Position numbers and translations under genes: made by a program
Part shown: piece after piece, positions 6,886-14,455 of the stretch
Layout of the letters: each line of letters begins with the position of its first letter
How positions within the stretch are numbered: position 1 is the first letter of the stretch
IMG/VR virus record: IMGVR_UViG_2537561689_000014
Reading direction: 5' to 3' (one strand)
DNA from: a virus
Lineage: Duplodnaviria; Heunggongvirae; Uroviricota; Caudoviricetes
DNA: 14,455 nucleotides
The notes under the pieces: model-generated
Database searches by the model: none
Told to the model about the DNA's origin: nothing
What the model saw: only the letters and a program-made list of their open reading frames with translations

Positions 6886-7018
6886 TTTTTGGGACTCCTG
6901 GCTGATTAAGTATGTCGATAAGGCGTTTCCATCCGTCACGTAATTTACGGGTGATTCGTTCAAGTAAAGATTCGGAAGGGCAGCCAGCAACAGGCCACCC
7001 TGCAATGGCATATTGCAT
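6854..7018 (-). CDS. cIII: CIII (FtsH inhibitor that stabilises CII-type activators)
   Basis: Translated by hand, since it is below the track cut-off: [54 protein letters not shown] (54 aa), recognised as lambda CIII. Start ATG at 7018, stop at 6854-6856. Confidence 0.85.
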   Translation of the reverse strand: MQYAIAGWPVAGCPSESLLERITRKLRDGWKRLIDILNQPGVPKNGSNTYGYPD

Positions 7019-7090
7019 GGTGTGCTCCTTATTTATACATAACGAAAAACGCCTCGAGTGAAGCGTTATTGGTATGCGGTAACGCCGCGC

Positions 7091-7719: not shown

Positions 7720-8301
7720 ATGAACAACTCATGGTGGCAGGAACTAATGCATTTTTTCCTGCAAGGAATGACACTTAAACAGTTGATTCATATGCTAATC
7801 ATCCTGATCATATTGATTATTGTTATGCCTGTAAGCGTAAAAGAATGGATAAACCTGCATAATCCAGAAATCCTTCCTCATTACTGGATGTATTACATCC
7901 TGTTGTTTTGCGTTAGCTATGTGCTTAACGGCGTTGTTAATTCCGCTTATCACGCTGTGACTGAAAGAATTGAGATATTCGCTGCTCAGAAGCGCAAATC
8001 TAAAGAAGAGAAATACGTGCAAGATTTGTTTGATTCGTTAACTCTTGGAGAAAGAGCGTATTTGGCATTCGCTGTAGCCGCTAATAACCAGCTAAAGACA
8101 GAAAAGGGAAGCCCTGAAGCAATCTCATTGCTCGAAAAAGGGCTTCTTATTCGGGTACCTTCTGCTACTGGATATCCTGAAATCGACCGTTTTGTTATCC
8201 CGGAACGCTATAGAAATGAGTGCTACATTAGGTTTGCTGGGAAGAAAGACAGTCTTATGGATGAACTTATCGCTCAGGATAAGCATGGCAAAAACAAGTA
8301 A
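7720..8301 (+). CDS. sieB: SieB-like superinfection exclusion protein (membrane protein)
   Basis: 193-aa ORF MNNSWWQELMHFFLQGMTLKQLIHMLIILIILIIVMPVSVKEWINLHNPEILPHYWMYYILLFCVSYVLNGVV... with N-terminal hydrophobic helices. On the strand opposite to, and convergent with, the N-type gene, as sieB is in lambda. Confidence 0.8.
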   Translation: MNNSWWQELMHFFLQGMTLKQLIHMLIILIILIIVMPVSVKEWINLHNPEILPHYWMYYILLFCVSYVLNGVVNSAYHAVTERIEIFAAQKRKSKEEKYVQDLFDSLTLGERAYLAFAVAANNQLKTEKGSPEAISLLEKGLLIRVPSATGYPEIDRFVIPERYRNECYIRFAGKKDSLMDELIAQDKHGKNK

Positions 8302-8317
8302 TTAGCAAATTAATTTA

Positions 8318-8590
8318 TCATCTCGCCGTCAGTTGTTTTGATTTCCGGTAGCCTGCCGCGTAAATGGCTACGTTTGGCAGGCAAATACTTCCACTGCATT
8401 CATCTGCCTTCTTGCAGCGAAGGCTTCCGAGTGATGCTGCTTTGTCTGCTCTGACGCAACCAGAGAGCTTTAGCGCAATTTTTCGCGCCAGTCGCTGTTC
8501 TTGCATTGCCTGCTCACGTTGAGCCTGTCTGCGTGCTCTGCGGCGATTTCTGGCGTTATTGTCAGCCAGATATGTAATGACTACTGCCAT
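8318..8590 (-). CDS. N-family transcription antitermination protein (not lambda N)
   Basis: 90-aa ORF MAVVITYLADNNARNRRRARRQAQREQAMQEQRLARK... with an N-terminal arginine-rich motif. First gene downstream of the pL-like promoter and nutL. GGAGGT Shine-Dalgarno upstream of the start. Confidence 0.7.
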   Translation of the reverse strand: MAVVITYLADNNARNRRRARRQAQREQAMQEQRLARKIALKLSGCVRADKAASLGSLRCKKADECSGSICLPNVAIYAAGYRKSKQLTAR

Positions 8591-9819: not shown

Positions 9820-9826
9820 GCAAATT

Positions 9827-12154: not shown

Positions 12155-12649
12155 ATGAGAAAATTTATTTTAGCCTTTGTTATAAGTGCCTCGTTTACAG
12201 CAAATGCTGGTGTAGAGAAGTTAGGGCCGTGGATAACAAAGTCTGAGATAAATAAAATGACTGACCAGACTGACTTTGTGGCCCTTAATTTATCACCAGA
12301 TTCATATAACAAAGCAGGTACTGATCGTGCAACTTCACTGGTGTTGCGTTGTAGTGATAACAAAACAGATGCCTATTTATCATTCAATGATTATATGGGT
12401 TCGGACAACCCAAGAATTACAGTGCGGTTAGATGGCGGAAAGCCGGTCAAGAGTGTTTGGGGAGGTGGGGAAGGCGGTGATTCTGCATTTGCTCCACAAC
12501 CAATACAATTTATAAAGACCTTGGCTAAGCATAAAAAAGCTATTTTTGGGTTTGAACCTTATGGATCAACTATGCAAGTAGTTGAGTTTGACTTGTCTGA
12601 GATTGATAAGGTTGTGGAAAAAATTTCACAGTCTTGCAATTGGAAATGA
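12155..12649 (+). CDS. Hypothetical secreted protein with a Sec signal peptide; AT-rich accessory gene
   Basis: 164-aa ORF with AAGGAG Shine-Dalgarno 8 nt upstream. N-terminus MRKFILAFVISASFTANA-GVEK is a signal peptide with an AxA cleavage site and no lipobox. Two Cys in the mature part. Followed by a strong terminator. Confidence 0.7.
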   Translation: MRKFILAFVISASFTANAGVEKLGPWITKSEINKMTDQTDFVALNLSPDSYNKAGTDRATSLVLRCSDNKTDAYLSFNDYMGSDNPRITVRLDGGKPVKSVWGGGEGGDSAFAPQPIQFIKTLAKHKKAIFGFEPYGSTMQVVEFDLSEIDKVVEKISQSCNWK

Positions 12650-12666
12650 CAAAAAAATTTCATATG

Positions 12667-12694
12667 AACCCAGTTTGCGCTGGGTTTTTTATTT
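12667..12694 (+). terminator. Rho-independent terminator
   Basis: AACCCAG-tttgcg-CTGGGTT followed by TTTTTTATTT, 18 nt after the stop at 12647-12649. Confidence 0.7.
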
Positions 12695-13780
12695 CAGTAG
12701 CCAATAATGCATTCAAAATCTCTTACTTGAGAAACGGCCTATTTGAGATTTCAGTCGTGGCAGGATGATCAGTTGATTCGAGTATTGACGCATTTGCGTT
12801 CGGAGCGATTACAGTAGATTGTAAATAATAATGAGAAACACATAGCCACCCCGTGGTATTGAAACCATATAATGTTGGATTTGAAAACAGATCTTTTCCC
12901 ATGTATTAATAACTACATCCCCGCGAGTGATTCAAAAAGGAGGGCCCAATTTTGTCCGAGTTTTTGTATTCCCCCGCATGCCGCTGCGGAGCACTACATC
13001 TGAGTGTCTGACTAGGGGATAAAATTAGACTGGATAGTGAGAAGAAAGTGGCGCGCTAGGCTGTGCCGAGTGCTACCAGTACACCTTGGGGGTGTGCAGC
13101 TTTCGCCGAGACTGTAGTGGGTATCGGTTAATGCACGAAAAACCGAGAGGTCAGACAACCAATTTGCCGTAGGATTGTTTCCGGTGCGATACCGGTCTAC
13201 TAACTGAAAGCAATGCGAAAAAGCATAAACTCGGTCCTTCAGTCGCCCTACACACTATTTACTAAGAAGGGCTGAAGCATGGATACAATTATTACATGGA
13301 TGGGAGATCGTCTGTTGGGGGGACACAAAAATCCGATCTGCGGCAGATGGCGATCACTGGATTAACTTCCGCGATTTGTTCAACAATTTTGTACACTGAA
13401 AAATTAAAACATGGTGAGCCTATTAACCCAAACGAAGAAGAAAAACTTTATAGGCTTTGGTATGAAGGAAACGCTTGAAAGAATAAAGCACAATTAAAAC
13501 CTTTGATTTGCGATAATCAACTTGCCATAATTAAGTAATCGGAGTCTGAACAACTCCGGTGACTTCTGCGCTAAACGGGGACGTTTATGCGCACATACAA
13601 TCCAAACTATCTTCTCCTTTCACAGATGCAGAAATGCACCTGCAATTCTTTGCATCTAGCGTTTGACCTCTGCGGAGGTGAAGCGTGAACCTCCCACAAG
13701 ACGGCATCAAATTACATCGCGGCAACTTCACCGCTATCGGCCAGCAGATCCAGCCTTATCTGGAGGAAGGCAAATGCTTT

Positions 13781-14455
13781 GTAAGCGTCAACGGAGCACC
13801 GTATTGACGCTTATTTATTGGTGAGTACTACGTTCCATGGCAGGAGTTCGTCAACACGGTTGGAGGGCCATTCCGGCAGTACGCTCAGAATATGGCGCAG
13901 ATACGCTTCCGGATCGATACCGTTCAGTCGGCAGGTGCCGATCAGCCCGTACAGCAGTGCTCCACGCTCGCCGCCGTGATCGCTACCGAAGAACACGTAA
14001 TTTTTCTTTCCGAGACAGACTGCACGAAGCGCTCTTTCCGCTGTGTTATTGTCCACCTCCGCCAGACCGTCATCACTGTAATAACAGAGGGCGTCCCACT
14101 GATTCAGTACATAGCTGAACGCTTCGCCCAGTCTGGATTTTTTCGACAGCGTGCCATTCTTCTCCACCATCCATTCATGCAGCGACGTCAGTAACGCTTT
14201 GCTTCGCTGCTGCCTGGCTGCAAGACGCTCTGACTCTGGTAATCCCCGTATTTCATTCTCGATGGCGTACAGTTCACTGATTCGCTTCAGGGCTTCTTCT
14301 GCCGTCGCACTTTTGCTGCTGATGTATACATCGTGGATTTTTCTCCGGGCATGAGCCCAGCACGCAACTTCTGTCAGCGCACTACCTTCACGTTCTGCAC
14401 TGAACAGCCTGTCATAACCTGTGAACGCATCCGCCTGCAGGATACCCCGGAAGGG
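13781..14455 (-). mobile_element. IS66-family insertion sequence, 3' part only; the element continues past the window end
   Basis: Transposase C-terminus open to the window edge. Putative terminal sequence starting GTAAGCG at 13781, 30 bp beyond the transposase stop, consistent with the GTAA termini of IS66-family elements. The other end is not in the window. Confidence 0.7.
13811..14455 (-). CDS. IS66-family transposase (TnpC), C-terminal fragment; 5' end outside window
   Basis: The minus-strand frame is open from the window edge to the stop at 13811-13813: ...FTGYDRLFSAEREGSALTEVACWAHARRKIHDVYISSKSATAEEALKRISELYAIENEIRGLPESERLAARQQ...MVEKNGTLSKKSRLGEAF...NNTAERALRAVCLGKKNYVFFGSDHGGERGALLYGLIGTCRLNGIDPEAYLRHILSVLPEWPSNRVDELLPWNVVLTNK. 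The CWAHARRK and NNxAER motifs are as recalled for IS66 TnpC. Confidence 0.85.
   Translation of the reverse strand, partial: PFRGILQADAFTGYDRLFSAEREGSALTEVACWAHARRKIHDVYISSKSATAEEALKRISELYAIENEIRGLPESERLAARQQRSKALLTSLHEWMVEKNGTLSKKSRLGEAFSYVLNQWDALCYYSDDGLAEVDNNTAERALRAVCLGKKNYVFFGSDHGGERGALLYGLIGTCRLNGIDPEAYLRHILSVLPEWPSNRVDELLPWNVVLTNK

Follow-up and report, generated by a model that had tools for sequence, protein, structure and literature searches.

What occupies a kilobase of prophage DNA in which no credible gene can be recognised? The question is raised by a stretch of 14,455 nucleotides (nt) from a tailed phage (IMG/VR record IMGVR_UViG_2537561689_000014; the whole stretch is called the window), which is the early region of an Escherichia coli lambdoid prophage. 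Between 12695 and 13684, the only open reading frame (ORF) of at least 60 amino acids (aa) in the ORF listing is 13296-13478 (+ strand, 60 aa), as stated in an earlier note made from the sequence, and the next largest is 12723-12902 (- strand, 59 aa). A gap of 1 kb with no credible gene is unusual for a prophage whose DNA is otherwise densely coding. The note had offered decayed coding sequence, or small proteins or RNAs, as explanations, and these apply to different parts of the region. The core, 12918-13247, is very probably a structured non-coding RNA, which is conserved and shows strong covariation. The flanks are remnants of genes without conserved structure: the stump of an anti-repressor (Ant)-like gene at 12729-12817, and a frameshifted and deleted gene for a 118-aa protein at 13279-13497. 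Small proteins were the part of the proposal that did not stand, as a 19-codon ORF lies inside the RNA and carries no sign of protein-level selection, and a 33-codon ORF is the known orf33/ylcH frame of the nin-leader and not part of the RNA. The annotated gene order and the position of the N gene in the locus show that the conserved RNA lies where the replication genes give way to the nin region, and that it has the orientation of the rightward early operon. Comparison with relatives explains the gene-less kilobase, and the best explanation for the region is a mosaic produced by the turnover of cargo genes at the P/ren-to-nin junction.

Distribution and fold of the conserved RNA

The elements of the RNA are as follows.
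12918-13247, + strand: probable structured non-coding RNA of about 330 nt (comparative alignment, covariation)
12918-13019 and 13028-13244, + strand: 5' domain and 3' domain of the RNA, each closed by its own helix
12976-12981, + strand: palindrome GCAUGC within the invariant run UCCCCCGCAUGC, the columns being invariant in 28 of 28 aligned copies
13006-13012, + strand: 5' strand of a pseudoknot, GUCUGAC, at the 3' edge of the 5' domain, including the UGA stop of the 19-codon ORF
13150-13156, + strand: 3' strand of the pseudoknot, GUCAGAC, within the 3' domain, pairing with 13006-13012

The first clue to the RNA was a segment, 12917-13252, with 79% identity to the Klebsiella phages Kp4856-1 and Kp4862-1, its neighbours there being unrelated on either side. 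Copies were gathered by exact scans of conserved blocks in IMG/VR and metagenomes, and by searches anchored on the downstream proteins. More than 90 copies were found, representing 28 distinct sequences that are 73-100% identical to the window. They comprise an E. coli type (98.8% or higher identity), clade A (about 17 variants, 75-81%), clade B (about 73%) and clade C (about 76% over the alignable 60%); one copy, L116, is apparently decayed (L numbers denote the related sequences). The named hosts, all carrying the RNA in prophages, are Escherichia, Klebsiella, Enterobacter bugandensis and Obesumbacterium proteus. Among complete E. coli genomes, 159 of 5426 (about 3%) carried the RNA, with exactly one copy each, and PGAP annotates nothing beneath it in these 159 genomes. 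Exact-motif scans of the GTDB species representatives gave no copy, which means only that those exact 22-24-mers are absent there. A weak second match to the 5' segment of the RNA (GGAGG...AUGUCCCAAUUUUUGGGUUGCCCC; E = 0.003, 11 bits) was seen in L111 at about 1223-1263 on the - strand, approximately 330 bp upstream of the main copy and on the opposite strand, and may be due to chance.

No known RNA family accounts for the element. The note had suggested a scan with Infernal and Rfam; with the 4227 covariance models of Rfam 15, no family matched the RNA even at E ≤ 10, and the only matches at this limit in 12600-13800 were two sub-threshold ones, both on the - strand of the terminator at 12651-12721. 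The only match at the gathering threshold in the whole window was the lambda cIII thermoregulator (6973-7031). ARAGORN found no transfer RNA or transfer-messenger RNA gene in the window, and no reverse transcriptase is annotated by RefSeq in an identical 13-kb locus or was seen among the flanking ORFs examined in relatives, in agreement with the note, which had recognised neither a transfer RNA nor a retron. Tandem Repeats Finder, with a minimum score of 30, reported nothing in 12690-13700. A literature search that included exact sequence fragments found no description of the RNA.

RNAalifold, run on 10 and then on 20 sequences, gave a two-domain fold, and the curated structure has 98 pairs in 18 helices. 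In an alignment made with MAFFT only (A4, 20 copies), 96.3% of the cells over the 98 pairs were paired, and 18 pairs showed compensatory double changes (117 cells). When the partner columns were slid by 1-3 positions as a control, only 36-46% of the cells paired and 2-6 pairs had double changes. None of 500 shuffles reached the observed values, a control which is not a probability. In an alignment made with a covariance model (A7, 28 copies), 95.3% of the cells were paired and 33 pairs had double changes (209 cells), against 6-10 in the slid controls, and the observed counts were again equalled in 0 of 500 shuffles. The covariance-model alignment leans toward the modelled helices, and the MAFFT-only alignment is the cleaner control; in the divergent clades (alignments A5 and A6) MAFFT displaced one helix strand by one base, and the covariance-model alignment was used instead. 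The hairpin CCGGT-GCGAT-ACCGG, noticed earlier at 13181-13195, is present there and forms the apical part of helix 17, which co-varies among the relatives: its loop-closing pair is A-U, C-G or U-A, and lower pairs change between C-G and G-C and between C-G and U-A. Several invariant G-U pairs (e.g. columns 132-182, 136-157 and 188-211 of A4) are compatible only with the + strand, which is therefore the strand of the RNA. The fold is thus upheld by compensatory substitutions across prophages of Escherichia, Klebsiella, Enterobacter and Obesumbacterium, and the RNA is a + strand fold under purifying selection and an autonomous conserved unit. As is general for structured non-coding RNAs, compensatory pairs were well above the controls and a coding signal was absent.

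The two domains are connected by a pseudoknot of 6-7 bp, in which all 7 positions were paired in 27 of 27 copies. Compensatory changes were found at 3 of the 7 positions: clade C has GUCCGGC/GCCGGAC (U-A to C-G, and A-U to G-C), and clade B has GUCUGAU/AUCAGAU (C-G to U-A). The pseudoknot was absent from the covariance model, so the alignment had not been fitted to it. A local hairpin, GGU...ACC, that RNAalifold proposed for the same sequence was rejected in favour of the pseudoknot, as it was broken in 7 of the 27 copies. The palindrome GCAUGC is paired by none of the supported helices and is predicted to be single-stranded; it is speculated that it could serve dimerisation or the binding of a partner.

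Promoter-like site, terminators and the cargo slot

The sites that bound the RNA and the slot behind it in the window are as follows.
12881-12909, + strand: promoter-like element of the RNA (TTGAAA at 12881-12886, 17-bp spacer, TATTAA at 12904-12909)
13279-13497, + strand: pseudogene of a 118-aa protein (PHROG 12412), from the alignment with phage Turner
13503-13531, + strand: promoter-like site of the nin region (TTGATT, 17 bp, CATAAT), overlapping the palindrome TTGATT...AATCAA

The conserved RNA begins 7-9 nt after the second hexamer of the promoter-like element, the distance in the window being 8-9 nt. A first hexamer TTGAAA, TTGAAT or TTGTAT, with an A/T-rich second hexamer (TTTAAT, TATTAA or TTAAAT), is kept in position in every clade, and the spacer and the sequence further upstream vary around these conserved hexamers. 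We infer that the RNA has its own sigma-70-like promoter at 12881-12909. Upstream of it, the genes of relatives include the anti-repressor-like gene, a dATP/dGTP pyrophosphohydrolase and others. On the downstream side conservation ends at ...CCAGUCGCC, and the genes on both sides differ among phages.

In most relatives the RNA is followed by an intrinsic terminator, which starts 8-12 nt past the closing helix, and by one of several unrelated genes. The commonest partner among the divergent copies is a 178-aa protein with two transmembrane helices (2-TM), whose start lies within about 25 nt of a GC-rich hairpin and U-tract. A similar terminator precedes a 183-aa protein with a C-terminal RHNLLH motif (HEPN-like, Rx4H). 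A third type of cargo is a 95-aa protein, and a fourth is a 177-aa protein with a PIN-like N-terminus (MKNIIIDSNAW) and its own TATAAT-like hexamer upstream. In the fifth arrangement, that of the E. coli type and of the L056, L060, Enterobacter and Obesumbacterium copies, there is no terminator and a 118-aa ORF follows 29 nt on. Copies without cargo occur in three RNA clades; they share the same terminator, GCCACC-GAAA-GGUGG-U6, after which the nin promoter follows directly. A 2-TM protein is shared, at 95% identity, by two contigs, of which one has a clade B RNA in front of it and the other a clade A RNA, and homologues of the cargo proteins also occur without the RNA (L104, L109 and L127). 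The RNA is thus an independent module, because upstream, downstream and cargo genes all vary around it, and the space up to the nin promoter is a slot with changing cargo.

No Pfam or PADLOC match was obtained for the 118-aa, 183-aa, 2-TM and 95-aa proteins, and no NCBIfam match for the 118-aa, 183-aa, 2-TM and 177-aa proteins; the 'toxin' labels of the cargo come from motifs read by eye (HEPN, PIN) and predicted transmembrane helices, with no family match. Some cargo genes (L003 4385-4936, and the downstream ORFs of L078, L062 and L086) are candidates for single-gene exclusion or abortive-infection effectors. A relationship of the 2-TM protein to the SieB of this phage was considered and was not significant (E = 0.011 over 84 residues).

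The window belongs to the fifth arrangement, and its 118-aa gene is dead. The intact ORF is found in phage Turner (L002, 4551-4907), and in the window it is damaged twice, by a 4-nt insertion or deletion that follows codon 14 or so and by the loss of about 124 bp between TGGTATGAAG repeats. Among the E. coli-type copies the ORF has 118 codons in 28, 66 codons in 21, 28 codons in 7 (the window included) and 37 codons in one, so that it is broken in about half of them, in at least three ways, next to an RNA which is at least 98.8% identical. The 118-aa proteins form a small family confined to Enterobacterales. An AlphaFold model gave a four-helix bundle (pLDDT 80), and a search of the PDB with this model returned only generic four-helix-bundle matches, of which the best had E = 0.4 and none was significant.

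Proposed role and alternatives

The composite reading that best explains these observations is that the RNA is an autonomous gene and the one conserved, functional-looking element of the region, with a promoter, a terminator and a role in trans. We would give it a probability of roughly 0.55. The RNA would be transcribed rightward from its own sigma-70-like promoter, to which read-through from pR would add during lytic growth, and this promoter would allow expression in the lysogen, as for other morons. In the ancestral layout an intrinsic terminator of its own, lying shortly before the nin promoter and placed like lambda tR2, would end the transcript. In the lysogen it would work in trans, most likely by giving a protein or nucleic-acid partner a scaffold or a decoy. 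Our best guess is an RNA that stands alone, is expressed in the lysogen and regulates or binds protein, and its terminator may also limit transcription of the cargo. A trans-acting role was ranked first because the RNA also exists alone and survives intact beside a decaying neighbour.

Where cargo occupies the interval from the RNA to the nin promoter, it lies either no more than about 25 nt past the terminator (the 2-TM and HEPN-like genes) or immediately after the RNA (the 118-aa gene). As neither the 2-TM nor the HEPN-like genes leave space for a promoter of their own, they would have to be transcribed in the lysogen by read-through, which the terminator would keep low. In cargo-bearing phages the RNA gene would in this way double as promoter, leader and attenuator limiting the toxin-like genes, and this leader or attenuator role would be an added consequence of the position of the RNA. 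The window holds the terminator-less, 118-aa-linked version, in which the ORF has since decayed and the RNA has stayed intact.

Several points weigh against this reading. The helices of the 5' domain are nearly invariant, so that covariation says little about most of them, and the outer pairs of helix 2 were dropped as they are broken in clade C. The depth of the comparison is modest (73-100% identity, perhaps 6-8 independent lineages), and the compensatory changes therefore represent few events. The generic sigma-70 scan missed the promoter of the RNA, as its -10 fails the A2/T6 rule of the scan, and in most clades position 2 of this hexamer is not the canonical A; processing of the pR operon transcript is another possible source of the RNA. 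The copy in the window has no terminator to mark its 3' end. The trans role and any partner are things we purely infer, and a constant place upstream of genes on the same strand is equally expected of a cis-acting leader.

Among known systems, the ROOL (RF03087) and GOLLD (RF01998) RNAs resemble this one in being complex multi-helix non-coding RNAs with covariation and long-range tertiary pairing, carried as independent units by temperate phages. They are described in a preprint as self-associating (bioRxiv 10.1101/2024.12.08.627333), and the invariant, predicted single-stranded palindrome GCAUGC of this RNA would by analogy permit self-association. However, neither covariance model matched at E ≤ 10, the RNA has about 330 nt whereas theirs have about 580-800 nt, it occurs in Enterobacterales whereas they are found in Lactobacillales and in rumen or lake metagenomes, and it is fixed at the replication/nin junction.

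Complex pseudoknotted RNAs of this size usually bind a specific partner or catalyse a reaction. A bolder form of the idea sees in the element a new class of large phage RNAs, pseudoknotted and active in their own right, as a sensor, a ribozyme or a self-assembling RNA, and this we consider possible though less than likely. As a candidate sensor it might let superinfection or a change of cell state open the terminator, releasing toxin-like cargo or nin/Q transcription; as a candidate self-assembling RNA it might sequester a factor of the host or of a rival phage via the invariant GCAUGC.

Lambdoid antitermination RNAs (the boxA/boxB of lambda nut, and putL/putR of HK022) share the place in the rightward early operon, before the terminators guarding nin and Q. 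The RNA is five times larger than HK022 put, the comparison with the put fold being by size and context only. In contrast to nut and put, it has a promoter-like site and its own terminator, and the phage encodes an N protein. No boxA motif (CGCUCUUUA-like) was found in 12918-13247; boxA-like matches lie at 8051, 9826 and 14030, and those at 9826 and 8051 are taken as the boxA-like sites of the phage. The small RNAs of prophages (DicF, IpeX, AgvB/AsxR, Esr41, Pas) are likewise 'moron'-type RNA genes in lambdoid prophages with promoter-like and terminator elements, but they are 50-110 nt long, act with a single-stranded seed and an Hfq-type terminator and are in Rfam, whereas this RNA has about 330 nt, is almost fully structured and matches none of them. 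A survey of the Pas small RNAs makes no mention of this locus. A role as a CsrA sponge was also considered and dropped; the five GGA motifs, counted by eye, are at about chance level.

The alternative that survives best, although we regard it as rather unlikely, is a cis-acting leader: a riboswitch-like or infection-sensing attenuator which would control passage through the terminator into the cargo or nin/Q, by sensing a ligand, a protein or the translation of a 19-codon leader ORF. This ORF was pointed out in the earlier note, and both its Shine-Dalgarno sequence (AAGGAGGG, 12937-12944) and its TTG-initiated frame (12952-13011, 19 codons plus TGA on translation) are where they were claimed to be. 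Its Shine-Dalgarno sequence and start codon lie in helices 3 and 4 and its stop in a pseudoknot strand, so that translation and folding would be mutually exclusive. The RNA always stands directly upstream of genes on the same strand; in most relatives 8-12 nt separate the closing helix from the terminator, and a start codon comes about 25-50 nt further on at most, too close for a promoter to fit in between, and in the E. coli type the RNA is fused as a 5' untranslated region to the 118-aa ORF. However, no conserved alternative pairing, and with it no conserved antiterminator, was found, and the terminators present in most relatives vary with the cargo and independently of the RNA, whose 3' end does not co-vary with them. 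Cargo-less phages have a separate nin promoter after the terminator, and two lineages have a leader ORF of only 11-12 codons, with the stop moved off the pseudoknot. A length of 330 nt also exceeds nearly all known riboswitch aptamers, and there was no Rfam riboswitch match.

It is less probable still, and we think it improbable, that the RNA is an antitoxin or regulator of the type III kind, which would neutralise the downstream toxin-like protein or be processed by it within an abortive-infection module. The order of promoter, structured RNA, terminator and small promoterless toxin-like ORF, seen in the relatives with 2-TM and HEPN-like cargo, does resemble that of type III toxin-antitoxin loci (ToxIN, CptIN, TenpIN) and of AbiF loci, which are described as carrying an upstream non-coding RNA (PMC12373285). 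The terminator would similarly set the ratio of RNA to protein, and the 183-aa RHNLLH (Rx4H, HEPN-like), 177-aa PIN-like and 178-aa two-transmembrane proteins look like effectors. This layout is not present in the window, which lacks the terminator, or in the cargo-less copies. At least five unrelated proteins are found behind the one RNA, which in other copies has no cargo at all, and homologues of these proteins exist without it. It is a single complex fold without the tandem direct repeats of a ToxI-like antitoxin, no cargo protein matched ToxN/AbiQ, Abi_2 or any PADLOC model, and the HEPN and PIN assignments were read by eye. In the window the partner ORF is dead and the RNA unchanged.

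That the conserved element encodes small proteins instead is very improbable. The candidates are the 19-aa product of the leader ORF (MSEFLYSPAC...) and a hydrophobic 32-aa product of an antisense ORF (MLFRIAFGWL...), the latter as a type I toxin-like protein with an overlapping antisense RNA. In all clades GGAGG is found 6-8 nt before the TTG, and the first 10 codons of the 19-codon ORF are nearly constant. The antisense ORF is hydrophobic and open in 21 of 27 copies. Neither frame showed an excess of third-position changes, the variable columns over the codon positions being 5/5/4 in the 19-codon ORF and 9/12/10 in the antisense ORF, and changes in the ORFs were mostly non-synonymous and coincided with compensatory RNA pairs. 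The + strand ORF is cut to 12 codons in one E. coli sub-lineage (the L005 type) and to 11 in clade C; throughout the E. coli type (at least 155 genomes) the antisense ORF has a stop after 8 codons, and in clade C it is unrelated. The invariant G-U pairs indicate selection on the + strand RNA. A hok/sok locus, of a type often met in enterobacterial prophages, offers some likeness, with a highly folded transcript of 300-400 nt, long-range pairing and small ORFs; this RNA differs in having no Hok-like ORF of about 50 aa, no Sok match and no fold-back pairing of 5' and 3' ends, and no ORF on either strand has a coding signature, the hydrophobic 32-aa frame of the - strand being interrupted in the window. 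No match to Hok or another toxin family was found, nor to Sok or another type I RNA in Rfam. The small ORFs in the RNA are not under protein-level selection. The 32-codon antisense ORF (MLFRIAFGWLTGL...GMLLWQIGCLTS...; L078, L063, L003 and others), whose equivalent in the window is at about 13130-13228 on the - strand, is probably an accident of sequence conservation.

The least credible reading is that the region has no function, being decaying DNA that looks conserved through recent spread and serves as a homology arm for cargo exchange: its flanks are demonstrably pseudogenes, most E. coli copies are at least 99% identical and the minimum free energy of the single sequence does not stand out from that of shuffled ones (z = -0.28, and -0.13 on the other strand; the fold is visible only by comparison), but lineages of 73-80% identity keep more than 95% of the 98 pairs by means of 33 double substitutions, long-range pseudoknot included, which neutral decay would not produce, and conservation stops sharply at the ends of the RNA.

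Whichever role applies, the RNA was filed as a new family within a known general kind, that of autonomous structured prophage RNAs, with no homology to the ROOL/GOLLD or type III/AbiF RNAs. No systems in biology have been annotated more thoroughly than E. coli and the lambda-like phages, and despite this the RNA has no Rfam family or annotation, and no publication on it was found. It is placed exactly where lambdoid phages swap toxin-like 'moron' genes, and to judge from its flanking elements it may supply their promoter and terminator. At the least, a recurrent unannotated gap is explained and the RNA merits a family of its own. If the RNA serves superinfection exclusion, control of prophage genes or an RNA-only assembly, it would be an experimentally easy system, as Turner and Kp4856-1 are cultured phages. 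If it belongs to a new class with its own activity, a temperate E. coli phage would have a swappable defence or exclusion locus built around a constant structured RNA, rather than around a protein.

Flanking sequence and right border

Around the RNA and its cargo slot the window has the following features.
12666-12696, + strand: intrinsic terminator of the upstream secreted-protein gene (hairpin 12666-12687, then a T run), the left border of the region
12729-12817, + strand: 3' remnant of an anti-repressor-like gene (last 29 codons or so, plus the stop)
13535-13563, + strand: nin-leader hairpin 1, with the loop UCUGAACAA, a 'possible regulator-binding site' in phage 82
13568-13592, + strand: nin-leader hairpin 2, enclosing the Shine-Dalgarno sequence GGGGA and the AUG of orf33
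13587-13688, + strand: orf33/ylcH-type ORF of 33 codons (ORF listing; RefSeq coding sequence WP_072141579.1; orf33 of phage 82)
13685-13780, + strand: first 32 codons of ybcN, encoding a NinB/Orf-family base-flipping protein, truncated by an IS66-family insertion
13781-14455: the part in the window of an IS66-family element, which starts at 13781 (end GTAAGCG...) at a break in identity with the uninterrupted locus

The locus is 100% identical over 13 kb to one in E. coli 120899, where the RefSeq annotation gives the order gam, kil, cIII, sieB, cI-like repressor, cro, cII, O, P and a ren pseudogene, followed by the 'TagO' secreted protein, about 940 bp without annotation, a 33-aa hypothetical protein, ybcN, ninE, ybcO, rusA, ylcG and quuD. 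The N antiterminator is encoded by the ORF at 8318-8590 on the - strand. In a megablast search the whole kilobase was found in only 149 E. coli genomes and the cultured phages Turner and IdasGreatGrand, whereas the last 200 bp (from about 13502) were present in more than 2000 E. coli genomes at 90-95% identity.

On the left side, the terminator that the note had ascribed to a secreted-protein gene was recovered by the terminator scan. The gene itself (12155-12649) has a signal peptide, a Pfam VasI match and the RefSeq name TagO. VasI/TagO is an accessory family of type VI secretion, here present as a prophage moron with its own terminator, and the protein falls in PHROG 1848, listed there as of unknown function. 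The sequence behind it, 12729-12817, aligns with the C-terminus of a 107-aa ORF in Turner and of a 202-aa ORF in L004 (...PWQDDKWSRVLPHLRSDRLQ), and the Turner ORF matches PF10548 (P22_AR_C, E = 1e-15) and the anti-repressor families of PHROG. Turner has the same DNA between ren-emrE-ybcK and ybcN, with the 107-aa ORF, about 430 bp free of ORFs and the 118-aa ORF. The VasI-like insert has replaced the 5' part of the anti-repressor-like gene. Between ren and that gene, Turner (L002, 1539-3654) carries emrE/qacE and a ybcK-type large serine recombinase of 508 aa, an arrangement shared with DLP12 which illustrates the variety of inserts collected at this junction.

On the right side, the parts of the nin-leader were already known and annotated, namely the promoter-like site, the hairpins and orf33/ylcH. 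The site at 13503-13531 was the only sigma-70-like site called in the region by the generic scan, and in phage 82 (X92588) the same positions are marked as putative -35 and -10, in a leader annotated with -35/-10, an inverted repeat, orf33 and orf151 (= ybcN). The 33-codon ORF listed in the earlier note is thus a real frame, with a RefSeq coding sequence in the identical locus, and its stop overlaps the GTG start of ybcN. The stems of the leader hairpins differ across phages (L053, L111, L112, L115 and others) with the pairing kept, and the two hairpins together look like a cis-regulatory RNA. Around the loop YCUGAACAA of hairpin 1 the stems vary between phages (CGGAG/CUCCG, CCGG/CCGG, GUCAG/CUGAC), and the stem of hairpin 2 co-varies (UAAACG/CGUUUA against AUUUAA/UUAAAU). 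A resemblance between a pseudoknot strand of the RNA and the leader loop (GUCAGACAAC against UCUGAACAAC) was dropped, as the two do not co-vary between phages.

The right border itself had to be moved. The end of the insertion sequence was placed at about 13684 by the note, but the window matches an uninterrupted prophage (NZ_CP025916) at 100% identity as far as 13780, which puts the start of the IS66-family element at 13781. The ORF at 13811-14170 (- strand), a transposase fragment, matches DDE_Tnp_IS66 and IS66_C. In this strain the insertion after codon 32 of ybcN separates the nin operon (ninE, ybcO, rusA, Q) from its leader.

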